The notes: generated from the letters alone by a model not told the origin. Shown: positions 1 through 12,138, counted from the stretch's first letter. The stretch is 64,000 bases of DNA from Microbotryum violaceum (GCA_001244265.2 CDLV01000007.1:372001-436000), one strand, 5' to 3'. Translations and numbers: made by a program.

Positions 1-685
1 CTTGACGCCTCGAGCACGGATCCTCGACTTCGTGACCAACCTCATGCTTGGCGGCACGCTCATCTTTGGTGGCGGGCCCGTCGTGATTCCTCTCTTGCGA
101 TCATACACCGTCGATCCAGGGTGGGTCGCCCCGCGCGATTTCCTCCTCGGTTTTGCGTTGCTGCAAGCCCTACCCGGCCCTCAATTCAACTTTGCCGCGT
201 TCTTAGGAGTTCTTGTGATCCCATCCCAGCCATTCTTGGGTGGCCTCTTGGGCGCGATGGCGATCTTTACCCCAGGAATATTGCTCAAGTTGGGTGCTCT
301 ACCTTTGTATCAAAAATTCAAGACTAACGGTCCGGTGCGGAGCGTCTTGAGGGGTTTCAACGCGGGGGCCATCGGACTCGTACGTCTCGAAGTGACCGCG
401 TCCGCAGTTGGACCTGGAGCGAGCAGCTTGCTGATAGAGTTATCGTCCTTCCCTCCCCAGATCTACTCGGCCGTCTATCGCCTCTTCCGAGTCGGCTTCG
501 TCCAAGGATCGACCCTCGACCCCGGCGTCCCCGCAGCCTTCCGATCTCTCGATCAGGATGGCTTCTGGGTTTCGATCGTAGCGGCGACTTTTGTCGCGTG
601 TGGTTGGTTCAACGTTCCGACACCGGTTGCGATCTTGGTAGGAGCGATTGGAGGGTTGGCTTGGTATGTTGTTCAGCAAGCTTAG
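1..685 (+). CDS. Chromate transporter (CHR family), 3' part; truncated by window start
   Basis: Motifs FGGGPVVIPLLR, FLLGFALLQALPGPQFNFAAFLG, AIFTPG and LRGFNAGAIGL; probable in-frame intron 380-460 (GTACGT...CCCCAG); stop TAG at 683-685. Confidence 0.9.
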   Translation, partial: LTPRARILDFVTNLMLGGTLIFGGGPVVIPLLRSYTVDPGWVAPRDFLLGFALLQALPGPQFNFAAFLGVLVIPSQPFLGGLLGAMAIFTPGILLKLGALPLYQKFKTNGPVRSVLRGFNAGAIGLVRLEVTASAVGPGASSLLIELSSFPPQIYSAVYRLFRVGFVQGSTLDPGVPAAFRSLDQDGFWVSIVAATFVACGWFNVPTPVAILVGAIGGLAWYVVQQA

Positions 686-1182
686 TCATGCTTTGGGGGT
701 ACATATAATATTGTCTGTAGCATCTGGCCCGGTCAAGATGCGATCGGGGGTGGAGGGGAATGAGAAATTGAATGACTATGATTACAAGACCACCGAAGCC
801 GACAGCTAGACCACCCCCAAAACACGCAGCGTCCAAAAGCGCAGCCAATGAAATAGTACGTGAGGTAAAGCCTACTGTACGAGACAAAGAGCAAAGACCA
901 GAGATAGGCTCTTCTCCCGAAACCCCCAAGCCATGCTATCGCTGCTGGCATGGACACAGACTACGTTCAACAGCGCGTGTAGGGGTGTATCGCTTCTTGG
1001 AACCTTGATGATGTTTACGAGGGACAGACTGCTCGTGTAGTGGTAAACATGGACCTCGTAGTGGTTGTAGACGACTGTCGGTTCGTCATGATGGGATTAG
1101 CTTGCTTGTTGGCCTACTGCGGCACCGAAGCTTGGTATTCGTACCCGGTCGACTGTTGCTGTTGCTGGACGGGGGGCAAAGT

Positions 1183-2055
1183 CTAATTTGTCTTCTTTCT
1201 ACGACCATTTGACGAGGCCTTGTGCTCGACATGATTGGTGCGCTGTTCCCGCCTCGGACATTGATTCGCCGTATGATCGCGGCTGAAGCAAAATTGGCAA
1301 GGCGTGTCGAGGTGACGGCGGAGGGACCAGAGCAAATTCTCGAACGACGGAAGTTGTTTCTGACCAGGTTCGAGGCGGCGTATGACAGCCGATCGCCAAG
1401 GCTCAAGTGCTGGGGGTATGTTGGCGAGGAGTCGAGCTGCCATGAGCTGTTCGACGTCGATTTCGTTCTTCCTTATGTGGGTCGTCAAGTTTAGGACTCG
1501 CTTGGACCATTCGAGGAAACCTGCGTGATCGGAGGGCATACGGGGCATGTTGCAAAATTTGTCGACGAGGGAAATTGTGGCGAGGGCGTCGTTGGGTGCG
1601 TATCGTTCCCGAAAGGCGACCCACCAGTCGTGAGCCGTTGCGTCGGGATCCATGGCAAGGAGCATATGGAGCGCTTGGTCGGTTACGGATGCCAGGATGA
1701 TCATGCGTGCGTAATGCTCCCACTTGGCGCAAACGTCTTGAGTCCAGGTATCAGAGATCGTGCCGTGTTTGGTAAAGGTGTAAACCTCCCTAGGGACCAA
1801 AAACGACATGTTGCGATCCCATTCCCAGAAGTTTTCGCTCCCCTTCAGTTTGCAGTGGTCGGGGATTTCGGGGATCACGTAGGATGGGAGGTGGGGAGGT
1901 TCAAGACGCCGAGCTTTACGCGCTAGTTCGTCGTATTCCTTCTTTGTCAATATCACCGTCGAGGACTCTCCATCCGGATTAAGGGGCTGCGGACTCGTGG
2001 CGTTGTCCCCCCGCAGGTCTGGTGACGTGGAGTCATCGAGCTGGGTTGTCGGCAT
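1183..2055 (-). CDS. Ty1/copia-type Gag-like protein (290 aa) with CCHC zinc knuckle; no pol
   Basis: N-terminal KLKGSENFWEW motif, UBN2-like ARMIILASVTD...TAHDWW..FRERYA segment, and CQFCFSRDHTANQC (CX2CX4HX4C). The ORF is uninterrupted. No protease, integrase or RT motifs were seen downstream. Confidence 0.8.
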   Translation of the reverse strand: MPTTQLDDSTSPDLRGDNATSPQPLNPDGESSTVILTKKEYDELARKARRLEPPHLPSYVIPEIPDHCKLKGSENFWEWDRNMSFLVPREVYTFTKHGTISDTWTQDVCAKWEHYARMIILASVTDQALHMLLAMDPDATAHDWWVAFRERYAPNDALATISLVDKFCNMPRMPSDHAGFLEWSKRVLNLTTHIRKNEIDVEQLMAARLLANIPPALEPWRSAVIRRLEPGQKQLPSFENLLWSLRRHLDTPCQFCFSRDHTANQCPRREQRTNHVEHKASSNGRRKKTN

Positions 2056-2477
2056 GGCCTGTCAGAATGTGGGGGCGTGGGACTAAGTATCGCAGGTGGT
2101 TGACACGAGCACATTTCAGGTCGTTTCCGTCAACATATTGAACTTACCTGATCTCAAAAGTTCGATCAGGAACCTGTCGATGGCGAGGGACATGACTGAG
2201 GAAGGAAGCGACTGAGCGCTTGTGCGAGTCTCAGATCTTCCACGAGTTTCCCGACTTGCAACTCGCCGACAGGTGTCGATCACGTGATGCCCGAATGGAA
2301 GCCGAGCCAGCCTCACCTACTTGTCATATTTTCAGTCAATCCCCTCGTTCAGGGACTCCCTAGCCTGCGAAATGCCCATTGGGGTCTGAAAGCTATGAAA
2401 ATAATCTCGATAGGAGTCTCGCCGGTGTGTGGTTTTTCTGGCCGGGCCCGGGCGCGAACTCAGCAAGGACTCTGAAG

Positions 2478-2494
2478 CCCCCCCCCCCCCCCCC
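2478..2494. repeat. Poly-C homopolymer (17 nt; poly-G on the minus strand)
   Basis: Direct reading. Confidence 0.95.
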
Positions 2495-2634
2495 AACAAG
2501 ACAAGAAAGCAAAGAAATGAACAACGAAACTCTATCACTTGATGTCCACTCAATTGCAGTTAGAGAACGAATTCAGGACGTCCATGAGCCTCAGGCGTAG
2601 GGTCTTCTGACAGACTCTCACCCAATCCCGACAT

Positions 2635-3034
2635 TCAATAACGCACGTCTGTCATCGACTGATCTTGCTGCTTCTCGAACGAGTGGCACGAGCAACAACA
2701 CGAACTTGAAGCTAAGTTCTGCGATGCCGAGCTTTGATATCCCACCAGGGTCCCGGACCCGGATGGAGAAGGGTCACTGCGGTCTGCGGCAATGTACTCT
2801 TGAGCCGAGCGAAGGTCCGGAAACTTCTTGTATTTTGCGCCGGAGAAACCCTTGACTTGCGCTTCGGCCTCTGCCCAAGTGGTGTAGGTACCCTCCACTC
2901 GGCCATGTCGAACTAAAATAAGGGAAGTCGATGAAATCAGATGATTAGGGGCTAGTTCTGCCTCGGCATCTGCTGCAAGGCCGAAGGAACTTGCCTGCAT
3001 AGTACCCCGGTTGGATGCCGCCTGATCTCGCCAT
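2635..3034 (-). CDS. Stand-alone RNase H1 N-terminal hybrid-binding domain (Cauli_VI/HBD) protein
   Basis: ATG at 3034 plus a GC-AG intron 2994-2913 gives MARSGGIQPGYYAVRHGRVEGTYTTWAEAEAQVKGFSGAKYKKF, matching the HBD consensus YYAVxxGRxxGxYxxWxExxxQVxGFxGAxYKKF. No catalytic RNase H domain follows. The 3' end is uncertain because a possible donor GTGCGT lies at 2646. Confidence 0.8.
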
Positions 3035-4836
3035 TGTTGGTCGTTGGGAGTTTGGTTGCGCGAAATCACAGCCGAGGCCGGAGATTTTCTTCTGGTCGCT
3101 TCCTTCAAAAGCTCGTCAGTCGGGTTCGTGTATTGGCTCGCTATCCCTGTCGGGCAAGCGCTCAGCCTTGTCAGCGAGCCGGGCGAGGAGGTCGGCGGAT
3201 TGAATCAATCGCTGTGTTCAGTTCAATGGCCTACCTAGAAGATAAAACGCGAGGGATGTGGATAGGGTGAGTAGGATAAAGAAAGCTAAAAGGTGCGGAC
3301 CGTTGATCAGCCCGGTGTACACAGGAAGAGCTGCAATTAGCCCGAATTACCGAACGCAGTAGTGCTCAAGTAGTCGGTCGTTGAGAAAAAAATGACGAGC
3401 TCCCACAAGGGTGTGTGTCGTCCTCGGGATCCCGTCGGAATCGAAATTGTCAAGGCGAAGAGCAGTCGTAACGGCAGCAAGTTCTCAATTTCGGCGGTCG
3501 TCGAGGTTAGCGGCAGCGGCGGCAGAAATCGGATTAGGGGACAAGTCACCTCGGGGGATCGATCAGGTCAATGACAGCGGCTTCGGCAAATACCTCGTCG
3601 ATCAAGCGCTTTGGGGTAAATTTCAGATCAACTAACAACGACAATACATGCTTTATAAATGTGCACGGAGGACCGGGCCGGAACGAAGAAAGGCAGCGAA
3701 AGGTGAATGCAAAAAGAGGAGGTTTTCTGAACGATCTTGTCGCTTTTTCGCCACGAAGACTCGAAGATTAACGAGCTACAGAAGCATACAGTTGCGCGGG
3801 ATTCGGATGGAAGGCCTAGACAGACGAGGAGAAGCGGGAAGAACGGCTAAATGAGCGGATGAGGCAGTCAAAGGGGATAAAAGCGCGGGGCGGTTTGAAT
3901 GGATAGGACGTCTTGGGGAAGTTCGCTTCTTGTTGGTGGTAGACGATTTCGAGGATCCAATAGGACATCTCACCCGGCTTTGATTTTTTACGTGTCTTAA
4001 GTCTCGTTCGGTATCGTTCTCCAGTATTCAGTGTCACGGTCTTGTTCTCGTTCTCGGTCCCGTTTTTCGGTTCTACCTTTCTCCTGCGCTCTCTCCTGCC
4101 ACCCCGTGCCTCTCGGCCATTTCGGTCACCCTCCGTCTCTCTCTCCTGTGGCCTCTGAGAAACTTTTATTCACGTCTCCACGTTTGTTTTGATTCATCGT
4201 CTTGATTGCCCTATCCTATAGGTGCACGCTGAGGTTTCCTAGGACAAATTTCCAACTGTTGTCTCGGAGCTTGGAACGGTGCGCCATCAAGTCAAAAGCG
4301 CCTTCGGAGGGAACGAAGTGCCCGAATAGAATTTGATAGGCTTGATCCCGCGAACCCGAACTTGGGTCTTCTCCTCACCTTTTGCTCTACATCCGATCAG
4401 GTGTGTACTCATGTTTCATGGCGTCTGATTGACTCTGAGGATTGGCTCTGCATCGGATCAGTCCGTGGTTCAACTTGGTAGCGTCTGTCCCTGCCGCTCC
4501 TTCCAACTTCGGTCAGACGGATACGTTGTGTAAGGAGTACAGCATCATCGACTTCAATGCACAATTTCAGGAATCTTGATCCACCTCCACGTGGCGGTTG
4601 CGTATCGGGCTCACTTTCGGTTCACGCCCAAGGTGAAATCGAATGGTGTGTATGCTCCTCAGGAGTCAAAACCTCAGGAGGCGGCAGTTCAGGAGGCGGA
4701 CGTTCAGAAATTGAACCACGAGGACGGTTGATCGTATTGCCTCTTCTTGTCATCACTGGGATCGCTTCATTTCCAATCTATAAGTTCATCCAGCTCTACT
4801 ACCAAGCGCTTCTCCCAGTCCGCTTTTGAGAGAACC

Positions 4837-6209
4837 TCAGAACCTAAACCCAAACTCCCTCTCCAACACCTTCCGAATCGGTCCCGTTTCGAACGGAATA
4901 AACTCCACGTTCTCCTCCTCCCCCTTGATCCCTTCCTTGGTGTACAGTTTGGCTTTGATCAGGTTGTCGTCGCCGTCTTTGAGGTCGATCGGGGGAGCAC
5001 CGTAGGAGAGGGTTTTGCGAGCACCGGTGGGAAGCAGTATGGAGACGACCTACCCGCGAGGGGATCTTCAGTGAACGTTCGATCACACGCAAGTGAGTAG
5101 ACTTACGAAAAAGATCATAAACGTTGCCGCCGAAGCGTGCGAGTTATAGTACTCGGCCATGATGACATCACTCGGCAAGATCGACTCGAGCGTGAAATGA
5201 ACACAAGGAGACCAAAACCCAGGACTCGGATCCAAACTCGTCGCATCCTCGACGACGCTTCCACGGGGAAGGACACGACGGTACAACGTCCATCCGGACG
5301 GTGGATCATGAATCTCTTCGAAAGAGTTGATGCCCATGGTTTGTTTGCGCAAGAGGAAGGATTCGTTGCGGGTTAAAGAACGGGACGTCGCTCCGTCTTC
5401 GAGGACGATGGGGTAAGGACATCCCCCGCCACCGAACCCGGCGTCGAGGACGTAGCGCTTCGAGCTGGAACCGGCCCAGTCGACGACGAGTAGTTCGTGG
5501 GTGATACAGGACCAGTCATAGCCTACGATGGCGGGGTCTTTGCCCCGGAAAAGGTAAACGCGAGCACCGACTTCGGTCACTCGGTAGCCGAAACCTCAAA
5601 GGGGAGATGGATCACGTGACGTTTTTCAGTCGTCGCAAATCGTCGCAAGTTATCGGATGCGAGTAGTGAAAGTACCTCGTAGGAAAGCGGCACAAAGTGT
5701 GTTTTGGGCATAACAATAGCCCCCTGTACCCCGAGCGATCGCACACGAAACAGAAATCGATTCCCGATCGAGGAGGACAAGCGGAATCGAGCCTTCACGT
5801 CAGCCACCTCTTCCCTAGGTAACCTTCCAGAACACCAGTATCTCTCGAACACACCCGTATACCTCTTGGAAATCCTCTCAAAGTTGCCCACGCCCAACTC
5901 CATCCCGTCCCCGGTCCCCAATACGATCGATCGACTCTCCTCCATCGCGTTTTCCCAATCCGTCCTCTTGACGTGCAAGCTACTCGTGTCATAAGGGATG
6001 TGCGTATGCCACGCCATCAAGATTTGATAGAGTAGTTCCAGGGAAGGTTCGGAGTCGGCTAGAGTGGTGGGGAGGTCTAGACGGGATAGGAGGGACTCGG
6101 TGTCGGGCAGGGAGAGGATCGCGTGCTGGATTCGGGGCGAAGTTTTGCCGATGAAGAGCGACGTCGCGGGGCGGCGAGACGTGGGCTTTGTAAGGGATGT
6201 GCTCGCCAT
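4837..6209 (-). CDS. Arylamine N-acetyltransferase family protein
   Basis: Spliced model gives HIPYDTSSLH, TGGYCYAQN (catalytic Cys), THELLVV (His), YVLDAGFG (Asp), and ends LEREFGFRF*; about 3 introns. Confidence 0.88.
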
Positions 6210-6500
6210 TGTGGAGGCAAGAGGAGGGATGGGGTGGAAGAGGAAGGCCAAGAGGTGGAGCAGAAGGTATCGTGGTAAACGACAAGCCTGGAGCCGGGCG
6301 CGTGAGGGCGCGCGAAGCGTTGATAGGCGACGGTCAGCGAAGCTGACTTGGTTTGCTCTCGTTGACTCGACCTGGTTTTTAGGAGAAAGCCGAGCCTATC
6401 GGATAAGGACGTCCGCTCCCAAGGACAACATCCTTTCGATACGTGATTCGTCATCTAGCCCATCATATCCGTTACAAAAGTAGCAATCACCTCGAGTGAG

Positions 6501-8261
6501 TCAACCGTCATACTCGCCGAATTTGACATGTCCCGTCTCGCTCGCATGTGCGCGAGCCTCCTTTTCACCGACAATCGCCTTGCCGCATTGTTCGCACTTC
6601 AAGCTGCCCCAGGCAAAGGAGGCAAACACCACTTGTCAGCCTTAAGGTATCGAGCAAATAATGTCGAGAGCTACCCATGACTTACGTAAACGTTGCCGCG
6701 TCCGTGAACTGATGAGTTTTCCTCAACGCGGTGACGAGCTCCTGGGCAGCGATCAACATGAGCGAAGCTTGGTCGTACTCGGACGTCCGAGAAAATAGTC
6801 GGGTGTCAAAGTCGAGGTTTGGGAAGGGGTAGACATCCGCGGACGAGGGTTCGGCGTAGGAGAAAGTCACGGCGTCGTAGTCTGGTCCTCCGCGGAAAAA
6901 CGGTCCTAGTCAGAAGACGTTCCTCCGGTCCGCGAGGTAACGAAAGGCATACTCACGTATTCCGCTATACACCAACACGGCAGCATTCTCGTAACCCTCT
7001 CCTTCCCCAAACTCATCGACTCGACCCGTCTTGACATCAATCGATGCGATTGCGGTGTTGAAGTAGGAGGCAAAGATGGCCAGTTCGATCGCGCCTCCCC
7101 ACGAGTTGGGTTTGAGAATCGTATTGATATAACTTTCTTGCGGTTGGCTAGGGTAAACATAATCCGATTGTATCAGTGAAGAGAGATTTTGTTCGATTCC
7201 GAATGAACACTCGAAACTAGAGCTTACCCCAGCACGGCTTCGGACCAAGTCTCTGGATTATTCCGAATCACCTCGGCGACCACTGCGATGTGGCAAGGAA
7301 CGGTGGGGGCACGATGTCATCAATACCCACTGTCTAGTACACAATCGATGGTGCATTAAGGCCTACTCACGCTGCCGCAAATCTACTTTTTCAGGCGCCA
7401 ACAGCAACCCAACGGCTCGGAAGAGGCACGAATTATCGTCGGGCACGGTCTGTGGAGAGTCCAAAGCGCGATACGTCGGCTTGGGTTTCAATCACGGCTT
7501 GAAAATCGTTGCGGGGTATGGTACTGACCCTGAGGCACAGATACCCTCCATCGACTTGGACGTATCTGCCAGCGCCTGCCGAGGATGTCGGCTTCGCCAG
7601 GGTCGATGCCGAAGTCGATGCCGCCGTCGGGCTAGGCCGATGGTTCGTCGCGAGGGGAGAAGTCGATGACGAAGCTATGGCATCAAGATGTGTAGAGGTA
7701 TTCCCAACTGAGGTCGAAGCGGCTGATCCGGGGGAAGCTGTCTCGGCAGCTGAGGTGTTGGCAGTGACTTGAATGGACTCGCCTGATCGAAGACCGAGTT
7801 GGGATAGCGTGGTCGTAGAAGGGGATGAGGTTGGGATAGGTTTAGGAGGGAAGCCCGTTCGTACTGTAGGTTTAAAAGAGGGAAGGATGAGCGATGAATT
7901 GCGGAGTGCTGGTGTGGGTTGGGGATGACATGTCCCGTCAGTAAGGTCGGACCCAAGGCGGGGCACCACCACCGTTCAAGTTGGCGATTCGCTCAGGGGC
8001 CGAGTCCGACCTGAGGCCTGGGGTCCAGCCCGACCCAAAAGCGTAGGAGGATAAAGAGGACTTGCACTCCTGTTGATGAAGCGGTATCGAGGTGGTTTCT
8101 GTGACTTTCTGCATGAGATGCTCGAGCGAGGCCTCGGCAGGGACCGAGACCGAATGAGCTCCATTGGGACCTCTACACACTTGTGGACGGTCAGCAACTA
8201 CTAGAGCACAGATGAGAGCCTGCGAGGGAGCTGACCTTATCCGGAGTGCGATGGTGGTCAT
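6501..8261 (-). CDS. OTU1: Ubiquitin thioesterase OTU1/YOD1
   Basis: N-terminal UBXL (LRIR.GPNG, GFPPKP), VPDDNSCLFRAVG catalytic Cys box, SWGGAIEL, HYDA, and C-terminal C2H2 finger CEQCGK...HASETGH; multiple introns. Confidence 0.93.
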
Positions 8262-8684
8262 GCTTGAGATGGACTAGAGTGCGGGACGCGGTCAAAGTGG
8301 CCCCCGCGAGTCACCGCGGCTCGACTGATGACAGCTGCTGATGACGACGCGCCGATAACGCGTCGGCTTTTGACTTTTGACACACGCGTTTCGGCTAGCC
8401 CGTCCCCAATAGCCCCTGTCTAAGGTAGCCTCCGCACTGTCGGCGATCCGAGTCTAGAGCCATCCAACACCTCTTCCTTTCCCCACATCGTGAGTCACTG
8501 TGTCCTCAACCCTCTGCTGCGACACCGACCACGTGGCCAAGTGACCTACCCCCACATTCGACTGCTCCCACTCTGCCAGTCTGCCGCGGCCCGTCTCCCA
8601 GTCTGCCCGTCTCGGCGTCTCGGCGTCTCCCAGTCTCTCAGTTCGGCCATCCCATCGCAACGTGAGCCGTCCTCAGCCAATACG

Positions 8685-9975
8685 ATGCAACCCTACAACC
8701 CCTGGACCGACCCAGCCCCTACCTCGCTCTCCAACTCCACCCCAACCTCCGCCACCTCCCCAGGCTCGAGCTCTGATCCGGCCCTTGCGCCGCACCAAGC
8801 CGCTTTGCTCGCAGCCGAAGCCAGAGCCCAGGCCCAAGCTCTCGCCGCTACCCCACCCGCTCAACCGACCGATGCCCATCGACAACAACACGTCCCTTTC
8901 GATCCTTTGACCTTCCAAGCTGGTGCCAAGGACAAGTTGCCGTTCCATAGGATCTTGGATACTCAGGTGCGTTCAAAGGGATAGAGGGAGGACGTGATTA
9001 GGTCTGATTCGGTCCTCATTCGAACGCTGAACCGCTGACGTGAATTGTATTCCATGCACCTCATCACAGCTCCTACCGAAATGCTCCAAATCTCAAGCTG
9101 TGCAGACGTTGCAACTCATGCAGACCGTACTGGGGTGAGACACACCTCGAGCTTGAACCTCGGCGAATTCGGGCAACCAAATCGACCCTGACTCTTCACT
9201 TCTTCTGACCCGACAGCAACCTCCTCGAACCGCCCAACCCGGCCCAAGCGATGAAGTATCGTCAACTACGCAAGTCGAACGCGCAGATCCAACGTCACCT
9301 CGTCGACGTGTCCTCCGCCGCCGCGATCGACTTTCTCCTCCTGTGTTCGTTCCGTATGCAAGTTATCGACTTTACCGAATACCTCGTTTACCCACCCTGT
9401 CCCTCGGCGAAGCAATTGCATCAACTCAAATTGGGCGCTCATGTCGTCGCGGTTGTACTTGGCAGGGCAAAGGAGGCCGAAGAGAGGGAGGGGAGGTATC
9501 GCCAGAGTGAGAAGGATGTGCAGGAGGAGAGGAAGAAGAAGGCGCTGTTGCAATTCGAAGAGGATCGCAGGATCAAGATGGAAAAGGACCAGAGGGGTCA
9601 GTTCGAAATGGGTCAGAATCAGGCTTTTGAGCTCACTGCCTAACCATTATTCGTGTTCTTCATGCAGAACGCATCTTCCGCACCGAGAAAGCTCGTCAAG
9701 CCTCCGAAGCCGAAGCCAAAGCCGAACTTGAACGCCTACGCCTCCAAGCCGACGATGCGTCGGACCACCCCGTCTTCACAGGTTCCACGTCCGCAGCAAG
9801 ATCCATGACGATCCAACAGAATGATGACGACGATGAAGATACGGAGCGACCGCCTAGTTATGGGAGCGTGACGGGACGGGTCTTGGGCACCGGCGAAGCC
9901 GTTGTGGATCATGATGGGTTCGTGCAGAATCCGGATTTGGAAGACAGTGATGAGGAGGAATACGAGGATGCGTAG
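8685..9975 (+). CDS. PUB-domain-like protein with coiled-coil and acidic C-terminus
   Basis: Spliced model AVQTLQLMQTVL-NLLEPPNP..KYRQLRKSNAQIQRHLVDV..AIDFLLLCSF matches the PUB pattern N..P...KYR.I...N..F/I...GF; ends EEEYEDA* at 9975. Confidence 0.65.
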
Positions 9976-10301
9976 AGACGGTCTTCTTCCCGAAAGACCA
10001 AGAGTCCTCGATATTCTCGAAAGTTTTGGCCATCTGGCTTTGGCACGCAAGGTCTTTCCATTCGCTCGTGGGCTCATTGTAATCATTATGCAACTTGTCC
10101 CGCTCTGTCCATATCGCGATTGCCGATTGCTTGATGAGACACACCAGGCTTAGATTGTAGAACACAAGTTGGGAGCAGTAAAAGAACCAAACAAAAAAAG
10201 GAAAGAGACCTATGAAAAGGAGAAGAAAGAAAGAGAGCCCATGTTGCCCTCCTCCAACTGGGGGTGACCTCTAAGCCAGCGAAGCGATCGATCCCCTCCG
10301 A

Positions 10302-12138
10302 CTATTCGACAACGTGGTACTTCTGGCTCCTCAACTTGATCCCGCCCGAAGCGACGGGCAAATCAAAGTACGAACTGCAAAAGTAGAGCGAGTGCAAGTG
10401 ATGAAAGGAAAGTCAGCGCCGCTCCGATCACTTCCCCGCTCCCCATCCCATCTGACGACAACTCACCTCGAACGATACCTCCTCAAATAAACGATCGCCA
10501 CGTCCTCCAACACGTCCGGTTCGATACCCAAATCCTTGAACCCCTTCAATCCTTCCTCGATCTGCACATCATCAATGAACCTTCTCGTCACTTCATCGGG
10601 GCTCAGCGTAGGCCACCAGACGAGATCCCACAGACGAGCGGCGAGCGCCAAGATGGGTTTGGGGAAGTTGGGGCCCGAGAGTTTTTGTAGAGTCAGGGCT
10701 TCGACGAGGTGCAAGAGTTGTTCAAAGGTGTAGGTTTGGGGGCCGGTGAAGGCGAACGTCGAGGACGCGGTCGAAGGGGCGGTCAGCATAATCGAGAGCG
10801 CTTGGGCAACGTCCATGACCTGGTGGAAGGTAGATCAGATTACGGGGTTGGTTCCTGTTTCAAACATGCTCGCTCGCTCGCACTCACATGAACAGGCGCG
10901 ATCCTCGTCTCTCCGTGGTTGACCCTGAACACACTCGGACTAACGGCGATCGTGTTGAGCAAGCGATCCTCGTGGCCGTACATCCATCCCGGTCGCACGA
11001 TCGTCGCCTCGGGGAACGCTTCCTTGACGGCCTGCTCGCCGTGGAACTTGGTGCGGTAGAATTGCGACGCCGAGTCGGGCGCGGCGTTGAGGTGCGAGAG
11101 GTGGATAAAGCGCGACACACCCGAAATGTGAGCGATGCGGGCCAAGCGGCGCGCACCCGAGACGTGCACATCGTCAAAGGAGAAGTTCCTGGGGGGTAGT
11201 GATGGATAAAAGCTGTATCAGTCCCGAATCCGCCCAGGTAGGTGCCCGCGCTGATGCAACACACTTAGTCGTGTAATCCCGCCCGACGAGGTTGTAGACC
11301 GTGTCCGAGTGTCGCAGGCATTCCTCGATCTGGGTGTCGTTCTTCAAATCCCATTCCTATACGCGGGAGGGGAATGTAATGATCATGTCAGCTGATTGCA
11401 CCTCCTGCGGAGGAATCGAGATCGGCGCGCGGGCGGCGGGGTGTGTGGTGGGTGGGAGACTTGCCATGGGGACGACCTGACCGAGATCACCGCAGACCTT
11501 CAGGTGGCGACTGCCCGATGAGATGGCGCCAAACATAAACTTCAATAAACATCGTGTACGACCCTCTCAAAATCCCAACGTACGCCTCATCCTGGTCACG
11601 GTACGGCACGACGACCTGCGTGCCCGCCTTGGCCAGCTTGGACACGAGGTAACGACCCAAGAAGCCGGTCGCTCCGAACACGGTTGCGACATGGCCCGTT
11701 GACGAGTGCCTAGATGTGGAAGGGGAAAGGTGGAGAGAGAAGGAGGAGGAGTCAGTCTCGACCCATTGGCGTCGGCCGGCGTCGCAGCTCCTGCCCGCTC
11801 TGCTCTGCCTCTCACTCACCTTCCTCCGGGCCCCTTGGGTGTGAAGACCTTCTTGGTCTGCGTCGCAGGGACGATGACACTGGAGGGGACCGAGCTGACC
11901 GAGCGCTGTAGGGAGGGAGAAAGGGCCAAGTGAGGGTCAAGTGAGGGTCAAGTGAGGGTCAGCCTCGTCGCCGGAGAGCACGACAGAGCGGCATCTCGCT
12001 CGGACTGACCGTCGACGCCGGTGTGGACCGAGCCAGTTGAGCTGCAGAGGAGACTGCGTCGGTGCAGAGTACAGAATCAGCGCCAGTGCATGACCCAAGC
12101 GTGGCGTGTGGTGGGTACTCACACACTCGCGAAGCCAT
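10302..12138 (-). CDS. NDUFA9: NADH:ubiquinone oxidoreductase 39-40 kDa subunit (NDUFA9)
   Basis: [55 protein letters not shown]; mitochondrial-type presequence [15 protein letters not shown]; multiple introns. Confidence 0.95.
11927..11961. repeat. 3x 11-bp tandem repeat (CAAGTGAGGGT) in an NDUFA9 intron
   Basis: Direct reading; on the coding strand it reiterates the branch-point-like (C/T)TGAC. Confidence 0.85.

Follow-up and report, generated by a model that had tools for sequence, protein, structure and literature searches.

How does a gag gene come to stand unbroken between two other genes with nothing else of a retrotransposon around it, and has its host kept it for a use of its own? 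The question is raised by a stretch of 64,000 nucleotides from Microbotryum violaceum (GCA_001244265.2, CDLV01000007.1:372001-436000; 56.8% G+C), here called the window, whose minus strand carries an unbroken open reading frame (ORF) for a Gag-like protein of 290 amino acids (aa). An initial annotation of this DNA proposed a domesticated copia gag gene with introns in both untranslated regions (UTRs). The explanation that we favor, with moderate confidence, is that the ORF belongs to a Ty1/copia gag gene that was co-opted (domesticated) in the genus Microbotryum. The fungus has probably kept it for its own use, and genes of this kind have been described before in other fungi.

The ORF list places the reading frame at 1183-2055 on the minus strand, from an ATG at 2055 to a TAG stop at 1183-1185. 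Near its end, at residues 253-266, the encoded protein has a perfect CCHC knuckle (C-x2-C-x4-H-x4-C) with a basic tail after it, and the unbroken 290-aa Gag with its knuckle is thus present as the initial annotation described it. The features of the gene are as follows.

1183..2055, minus strand: coding sequence (CDS) of the Gag-only protein, identified from the ORF list, phmmer and orthologue identity
1306..1872, minus strand: predicted capsid (CA) region, residues ~62-250, helical and two-lobed, from the AlphaFold2 model, VIA and the family profile
1258..1299, minus strand: CCHC zinc knuckle, residues 253-266, sequence CQFCFSRDHTANQC, followed by the basic tail; it lines up with the knuckle of P0053, a fragment of a copia polyprotein
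2059..2147, minus strand: 5' UTR intron of 89 nucleotides (nt), GTAAGT...CAG (plus-strand ends CT..AC), with 3 nt between its end and the ATG, skipped in one contig each of the sequencing runs X6 and X7
2148..2194, minus strand: exon 1, a 5' leader of at least 47 nt with an upstream ATG at 2191-2193; the X7 contig extends to 2194 and the X6 contig to ~2186
1075..1144, minus strand: proposed 3' UTR intron, with its motifs present and splicing not seen, X6 and X7 being unbroken through 461-2057

If translation starts at the ATG at 2055, the product would be a complete Gag, with a predicted disordered N terminus, a two-lobed capsid domain, one CCHC nucleocapsid (NC) knuckle and the basic tail. 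A tblastn search of the 64-kb window with the 290-aa protein finds no second copy, since the self match is followed only by matches at E = 3.9 or worse.

The copia-like character of this protein is borne out by its relatives. A phmmer search of 1.84 billion representative sequences matches 48 proteins at E ≤ 1e-3 and 19 at E ≤ 1e-10, and 19 of the 20 relatives looked up by name are Microbotryum proteins. The copia relatives looked up in this way are 25-39% identical to the window protein. Among 28 relatives scanned against Pfam, ten contain RVT_2, the copia-type reverse transcriptase (RT), together with integrase (rve) and Pol_BBD domains, and ten others match no family. In long relatives the match falls within the N-terminal Gag part (residues 25-216 of 1498 in P0017 and 66-252 of 2032 in P0007). 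Two proteins of M. silenes-dioicae, P0051 and P0053, also have RVT_2 with rve/Pol_BBD. P0053 aligns to residues 34-281 of the window protein at 30% identity (E = 2e-42), with its own CCHC knuckle included in the alignment, and the window ORF stops ~30 residues ahead of the point that corresponds to the start of the Pol_BBD domain in P0053.

The profile search that the initial annotation recommended gives a divided answer. In the Pfam scan the window protein has no match to Retrotran_gag_2 or Retrotran_gag_3 and reaches Retrotran_gag_4 (E = 0.036, 14.3 bits, the cut-off being 23.5) and zf-CCHC_3 (E = 0.074) only below their cut-offs; the family relation is instead made through the polyproteins. 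Among 34 family members, Retrotran_gag_4 is matched in three. Retrotran_gag_2 is matched in only four (best E = 7.2e-11), so this Gag lineage lies far from the Pfam seeds. The copia Gag identity is established by transitive homology and by fold.

A profile of the 34-member family, compared with the sequences in the Protein Data Bank (PDB), retrieves the Drosophila Copia virus-like particle protein (E = 1.6e-8), with an alignment that spans chain residues 12-265 of 270. The AlphaFold model of the window protein has a mean pLDDT of 83.9 and is helical over residues 62-250, where the block means are ~82-97. Structure prediction had been suggested as a further check, and the best structural matches of the model are the Drosophila Copia capsid entries 8vvw and 8s41, with VIA Z scores of 10.1 (133 residues aligned, root-mean-square deviation 11.4) and 9.7 (131 aligned, 5.5). 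The next matches are the PNMA2 capsid (Z = 5.6) and the C-terminal domain of HIV CA (Z = 4.8). Foldseek finds nothing at E ≤ 0.001 in the PDB, where the Copia capsid nonetheless ranks first with a weak E of 0.014, and nothing at this threshold among viral models, where the best match is a caulimovirid coat/movement protein (E = 0.076). The predicted fold is that of a retroelement capsid of the Copia type.

The position of the gene is shared by other species of the genus. In the window it lies between two neighbors that serve to compare loci.

1..685, plus strand: 3' part of a chromate transporter gene with an intron at 380-460, the convergent neighbor and synteny anchor (Pfam Chromate_transp, E = 7.7e-28)
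2635..3000, minus strand: small Cauli_VI ORF (RNase H1 N-terminal domain), the upstream neighbor (Pfam Cauli_VI, E = 6.4e-15)

The 90% cluster of the best match consists of three annotated proteins. MVLG_02739 of M. lychnidis-dioicae (220 aa) is identical to the window at 203 of 204 aligned residues, BQ5605_C022g09442 of M. silenes-dioicae (409 aa) at 286 of 290, and Chr4-4g07467 of M. saponariae (262 aa) at 241 of 261, with a 27-residue gap in addition. A fourth protein, BQ2448_2035 of M. intermedium (168 aa), is 47% identical. Orthologues of the chromate transporter are C022g09443 in M. silenes-dioicae, Chr4-4g07468 in M. saponariae and BQ2448_2033 in M. intermedium. The locus tags of the two genes are neighbors (C022g09443/09442, Chr4-4g07468/07467 and BQ2448_2033/2035), and in M. 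saponariae the series continues with the Cauli_VI orthologue, Chr4-4g07466, which adjoins the gag-like g07467. Because these tags are neighbors, the gene order is kept in four Microbotryum species, and the synteny comparison that had been called for therefore finds the gag-like gene beside the chromate transporter in all four. A maximum-likelihood tree was built from 50 Gag regions, without P0049, which is another model of the same gene. In this tree the four gag-like genes form one clade (UFboot 99, SH-aLRT 96). The order within it, (M. intermedium,(M. saponariae,(window, M. silenes-dioicae))), is the expected order of the species.

Passages of PMC6581054 give M. intermedium as the outgroup species and place the split between M. 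lychnidis-dioicae and M. silenes-dioicae at ~0.42 million years and that between M. saponariae and M. lagerheimii at 3.0-4.4 million years. Since M. intermedium, as their outgroup, shares the locus, the gag insertion would be older than these splits as far as those passages date them.

Two details of the neighboring genes may be recorded here. An alternative start of the Cauli_VI gene at 3034, combined with a GC-AG intron at ~2912-2995, would make the start of the domain more typical; this is our own reading, over 2635-3034. In P0058, the M. saponariae model of the chromate transporter, compared with 1-327, the segment SSCDPIPAILG... matches another frame of the window and 29 residues are missing, which may reflect either a frameshift in M. 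saponariae or an error in the gene model.

Transcription of the gag-like gene begins in a short first exon of its own, and the 89-nt 5' UTR intron is removed. Contigs of X6 and X7 that are identical to the window cover 1-379, 461-2057 and 2147-2194, and with them the whole CDS. They skip 2059-2147, the stretch that the initial annotation had proposed as an intron, joining 2057/2058 to 2147/2148; the GT lies at 2147-2146 and the AG at 2060-2059. The transporter intron at 380-460 is likewise skipped in both runs. In 6 kb, X6 and X7 skip six stretches with ends of the GT..AG type, and three of these joints are listed as 'between: not known'. The DNA-like run X2 is colinear across 2059-2147 and across 380-460, exactly where X6 and X7 skip, and we therefore infer from these splice-like joints that X6 and X7 derive from RNA. 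The intron at 2059-2147 is retained in X2 and also in X1, a run guessed to be RNA that offers only short contigs of low depth.

The second proposed intron does not fare as well. Its motifs are present (GTACGA at 1144, GCTAAT, and CAG at 1075), and no joint at 1075-1144 occurs in the X6 or X7 contigs; because contigs drop rare forms, minor splice forms could go unseen in these runs. The analogy that had been drawn to Arc, with introns in both UTRs, is consequently not borne out.

The convergent chromate transporter and gag-like genes are assembled into one contig in X6 and again in X7, and so the 3' ends of their transcripts overlap or abut within 686-1182. Overlapping ends in this region could give rise to natural antisense RNA. 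The contigs of X2, X6 and X7 each have an extra base relative to the window, a C after 813 and a G after 1170, both outside the CDSs; homopolymer errors of the assembly are the probable cause.

The evidence on whether the protein is constrained is indirect. The gap-masked distances of the gag-like protein are 1.2% to M. silenes-dioicae, 8.2% to M. saponariae and 47% to M. intermedium, compared with 2.4%, 7.8% and 11.2% for the transporter. Since the M. saponariae split, the gag-like gene has therefore been as slow as a widely conserved transporter (8.2% vs 7.8%). On the path to M. intermedium the gag-like protein is ~4x faster than the transporter. Among the columns that are conserved in a family of 46 copia Gags, none of 24 is changed relative to M. 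saponariae compared with 17 of 180 others (Fisher p = 0.11), and five of 19 are changed relative to M. intermedium compared with 65 of 120 others (p = 0.021). A first version of this conserved-column test (p = 1e-4) was withdrawn as biased, the window residue being derived at about half of the changed sites. The G+C content at third codon positions (GC3) is 0.649 in the gag-like gene and 0.652 in the transporter. Purifying selection is thus indicated only indirectly.

Several observations weigh against co-option. The M. intermedium model is without 13 CA residues and without the first two knuckle cysteines, and because these are lost and its identity to the window is so low, the gene is not conserved throughout the genus. 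In the M. saponariae model 27 residues are absent, which may reflect a deletion or a predicted intron. The conserved-column test is not significant for M. saponariae (p = 0.11 to 0.17), and the changes relative to this species are spread nearly evenly over the N terminus (5 of 44), CA (13 of 179) and NC (3 of 40). In a neutral simulation 32% of the runs at the observed amino-acid divergence remain stop-free, so the intact ORF alone is weak evidence. X6 and X7 are not recorded as RNA runs, their RNA nature being deduced from the joints. Finally, the upstream ATG at 2191-2193, once the leader is spliced, opens an upstream ORF of 23 codons that overlaps the main ATG out of frame, and it could depress translation of the main ORF. 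Because the longest contig stops at 2194, this ATG may lie at, or before, the very 5' end of the mRNA.

These points lend substance to the explanation that survives best beside co-option. The gene may be an old, immobile gag relic, bereft of pol and LTRs, that is transcribed without having a host function, with an ORF that survives in the M. violaceum complex by chance or under very weak constraint and is decaying as in M. intermedium. The strong divergence of the M. intermedium copy with its lost knuckle, a chance of ~0.3 that the ORF survives neutral substitution at the observed divergence, the evenness of the changes over disordered and folded parts and the nonsignificant conserved-column test would all be expected of such a relic. 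Microbotryum proteins are also fast in general, the neighboring transporter itself differing by 2.4% between sister species. What argues against a relic is that the gag-like protein is only as distant from its M. saponariae counterpart as is the transporter, which fungi at large conserve, and half as distant as the Cauli_VI neighbor, which is 83% identical to its M. saponariae orthologue. Because the same protein runs at ~4x the transporter rate on the M. intermedium path, its rate within the complex is far below what this sequence can reach. In addition, changes largely avoid the columns that the family conserves (0 of 24 and 5 of 19), the gene has a dedicated spliced 5' UTR intron and host-like GC3, and its frame is kept in three species, even across the 27-residue gap. 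We consider a functionless relic possible, and a serious competitor, but not the explanation to be preferred.

A second alternative, that the ORF belongs to a still or recently mobile element, is met by the absence of a transposon around it. Such an element could be a nonautonomous gag-only unit with long terminal repeats (LTRs), or a unit of gag and Cauli_VI whose copies or LTRs were missed. The gag-like and Cauli_VI genes do adjoin on one strand in three species, and one gene model fuses them in frame. Dispersed repeats also lie 1.5-2.4 kb upstream, at 3512-3607 and 4320-4497, where other contigs of X2, X1, X6 and X7 map at ~80-90% likeness; a self-BLAST of 3400-4700 finds no second copy of them in the window. 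However, the initial annotation was correct that no protease, integrase or RT follows the gag, since tblastn with 53 gag/pol proteins detects no pol or pol remnant in the 64-kb window and matches, besides the ORF itself, only the Cauli_VI part of the fused model. It was also correct that flanking direct repeats are absent, as no direct or inverted repeat of at least 25 nt occurs in 1-12000. A primer-binding-site-like motif occurs at chance level (4 matches vs 4.0 expected) and is nowhere well placed upstream of the ORF, and Rfam and tRNA scans of 1-8000 give no match. In X2, with 80% likeness allowed, 261-2483 is a single contig whose depth of 11.6 is the same as that of its surroundings, and on this basis the gag-like gene is single-copy. 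Its closest paralogues by tree path, P0005 and P0006 of a copia family, are 1.84 changes per column away and 39 and 38% identical. Together with the shared position beside the chromate transporter in four species and a gene tree in species order, this makes a mobile element very improbable. The X2 contigs break at 2478-2494, where the minus strand has 17 consecutive G in the spacer that separates the Cauli_VI ORF from the gag-like gene.

The public gene models of this locus are discordant, three annotations giving three proteins of 220, 262 and 409 aa. The 220-aa model, MVLG_02739, begins at the upstream ATG at 2191-2193, uses an acceptor at 2019 and ends in IPPST-stop. This ending is the one expected from one extra C in the run of five at 1412-1416, and there are five C in the window as well as in the X2, X6 and X7 reads. 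The M. silenes-dioicae model joins Cauli_VI in frame to gag through a donor at 2646 and the acceptor at 2059. X6 and X7 give no cover of 2201-3400, which contains the Cauli_VI gene and the spacer, and from this absence by itself no conclusion is drawn. The form that agrees with the X6 and X7 contigs is that of 290 aa, and the analysis thereby corrects three discordant public models of one gene. That the 290-aa gene is a prediction artefact, and the real product another isoform without a complete Gag (the 220-aa model or a Cauli_VI-Gag fusion), gains something from the disagreement of the annotations, from the upstream ATG in exon 1 and from the loss of rare isoforms in contigs, which leaves room for minor forms, but we give it hardly any credence because X6 and X7 use the acceptor at 2059 rather than that at 2019, give the Cauli_VI gene no cover and, like X2, lack the indel on which IPPST-stop depends.

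Of what the initial annotation had observed, then, the ORF, the knuckle, the copia relation, the lack of pol and repeats and the 5' UTR intron stand and the splicing of the 3' UTR intron does not; of its interpretation, apart from that intron, there stands a gag-derived gene at a host locus, single-copy, syntenic, monophyletic, spliced and conserved as its neighbor is since the M. saponariae split.

If the gene is a co-opted gag, its history might be as follows. A copia element of a Microbotryum-specific lineage would have inserted between the chromate transporter and the small Cauli_VI genes before M. intermedium and the M. violaceum complex diverged. The LTRs and the whole of pol would then have been lost, leaving one gene, and the gag would have come or stayed under selection in the complex and decayed in M. 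intermedium. The protein could self-associate through its capsid domain and bind nucleic acid through its knuckle. As to its role, our preferred guess is that it interferes with the particle assembly of resident copia elements and thus acts as a decoy or restriction factor; a second option is an Arc-like, RNA-carrying capsid. In its most specific form the proposal would be that a full-length host-encoded Gag was recruited after the M. intermedium split, still assembles, and disables resident copia particles by co-assembly in the manner of Fv1 or Ty1 p22. We regard this specific form as unlikely; if true, a Gag-derived restriction factor against retroelements would for the first time be seen as a separate, fixed gene in a fungus.

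Gag co-option has been well studied in animals. The Microbotryum locus is a younger, genus-level case in a tractable plant-pathogen model with many sequenced sister species, and the genomes that carry the gene still contain the copia lineage from which it came. The conservation of the gene in the M. violaceum complex and its decay in M. intermedium form a natural contrast. They make it testable when a gag relic comes under selection, and whether a complete CA-NC protein restrains its parent elements.

The closest known systems are fungal. Excerpts of Wang and Han (2021; PMC8321522) describe three co-opted gags in fungi, two of them of copia origin in Dothideomycetes and none in Pucciniomycotina. 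The same excerpts name Crtg12 and Crtg13 as the co-opted Ty1/copia gag genes of Dothideomycete fungi, report no known function for any of the three deep fungal events, and state that the screen kept only events above the family level (a two-family threshold). As far as these excerpts describe them, Crtg12 and Crtg13 resemble the Microbotryum gene in being single-copy, gag-only, copia-derived fungal genes; their definition rests on shared synteny, expression and constraint. By the marks of co-option that the excerpts give, synteny and a common gene tree are found here within one genus (neighboring tags in four species and a clade supported at 99/96), and expression is represented by spliced X6 and X7 contigs over the whole CDS, which we take to be of RNA origin. 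On natural selection (dN/dS below 1) the indications are indirect, namely a rate equal to that of the neighbor gene and few changes in conserved columns (p = 0.11 and 0.021), against a neutral chance of 0.32 that the ORF survives. The Microbotryum gene differs, in a comparison made by description only and on the same excerpts, in being an independent event in a basidiomycete (Pucciniomycotina) that is found here in a single genus. Judged by listings and abstracts, we found no literature on this Microbotryum gene, which the supplementary tables of genome papers may list.

The Gags of Microbotryum copia elements (P0051 and P0053) and of Drosophila Copia (8vvw and 8s41) share with the window protein a homologous N-terminal extension, capsid and CCHC knuckle, and the same predicted capsid fold. 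Unlike them, the window gene is not followed by protease, integrase, RT or LTRs, is single-copy, and has a spliced 5' UTR intron. Relative to P0053, its protein is without a linker of ~30 aa between CA and the knuckle.

Among animals, Arc/dArc, PNMA2 and PEG10/RTL are host genes that keep a retroelement capsid domain, and capsid formation and RNA transfer have been shown for such domesticated gags. The window gene is like them in its retained capsid domain, and PNMA2 is the next structural match to its product after Copia (Z = 5.6). The animal genes derive from Ty3/gypsy elements whereas the origin here is copia, and the window protein is known from its sequence and a predicted fold. The likeness to Arc does not extend to a 3' UTR intron, for which the window gene gives no support.

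Mouse Fv1 and yeast Ty1 p22 are Gag-derived restriction factors. By analogy with them, capsid assembly could be poisoned by a Gag-only protein where active elements related to its source share the genome. Fv1 has undergone rapid adaptive change, unlike the window gene, which has been slow since the M. saponariae split. The p22 protein is made from within active Ty1 and not from a separate fixed gene, whereas the window gene is separate and fixed at a locus of its own.

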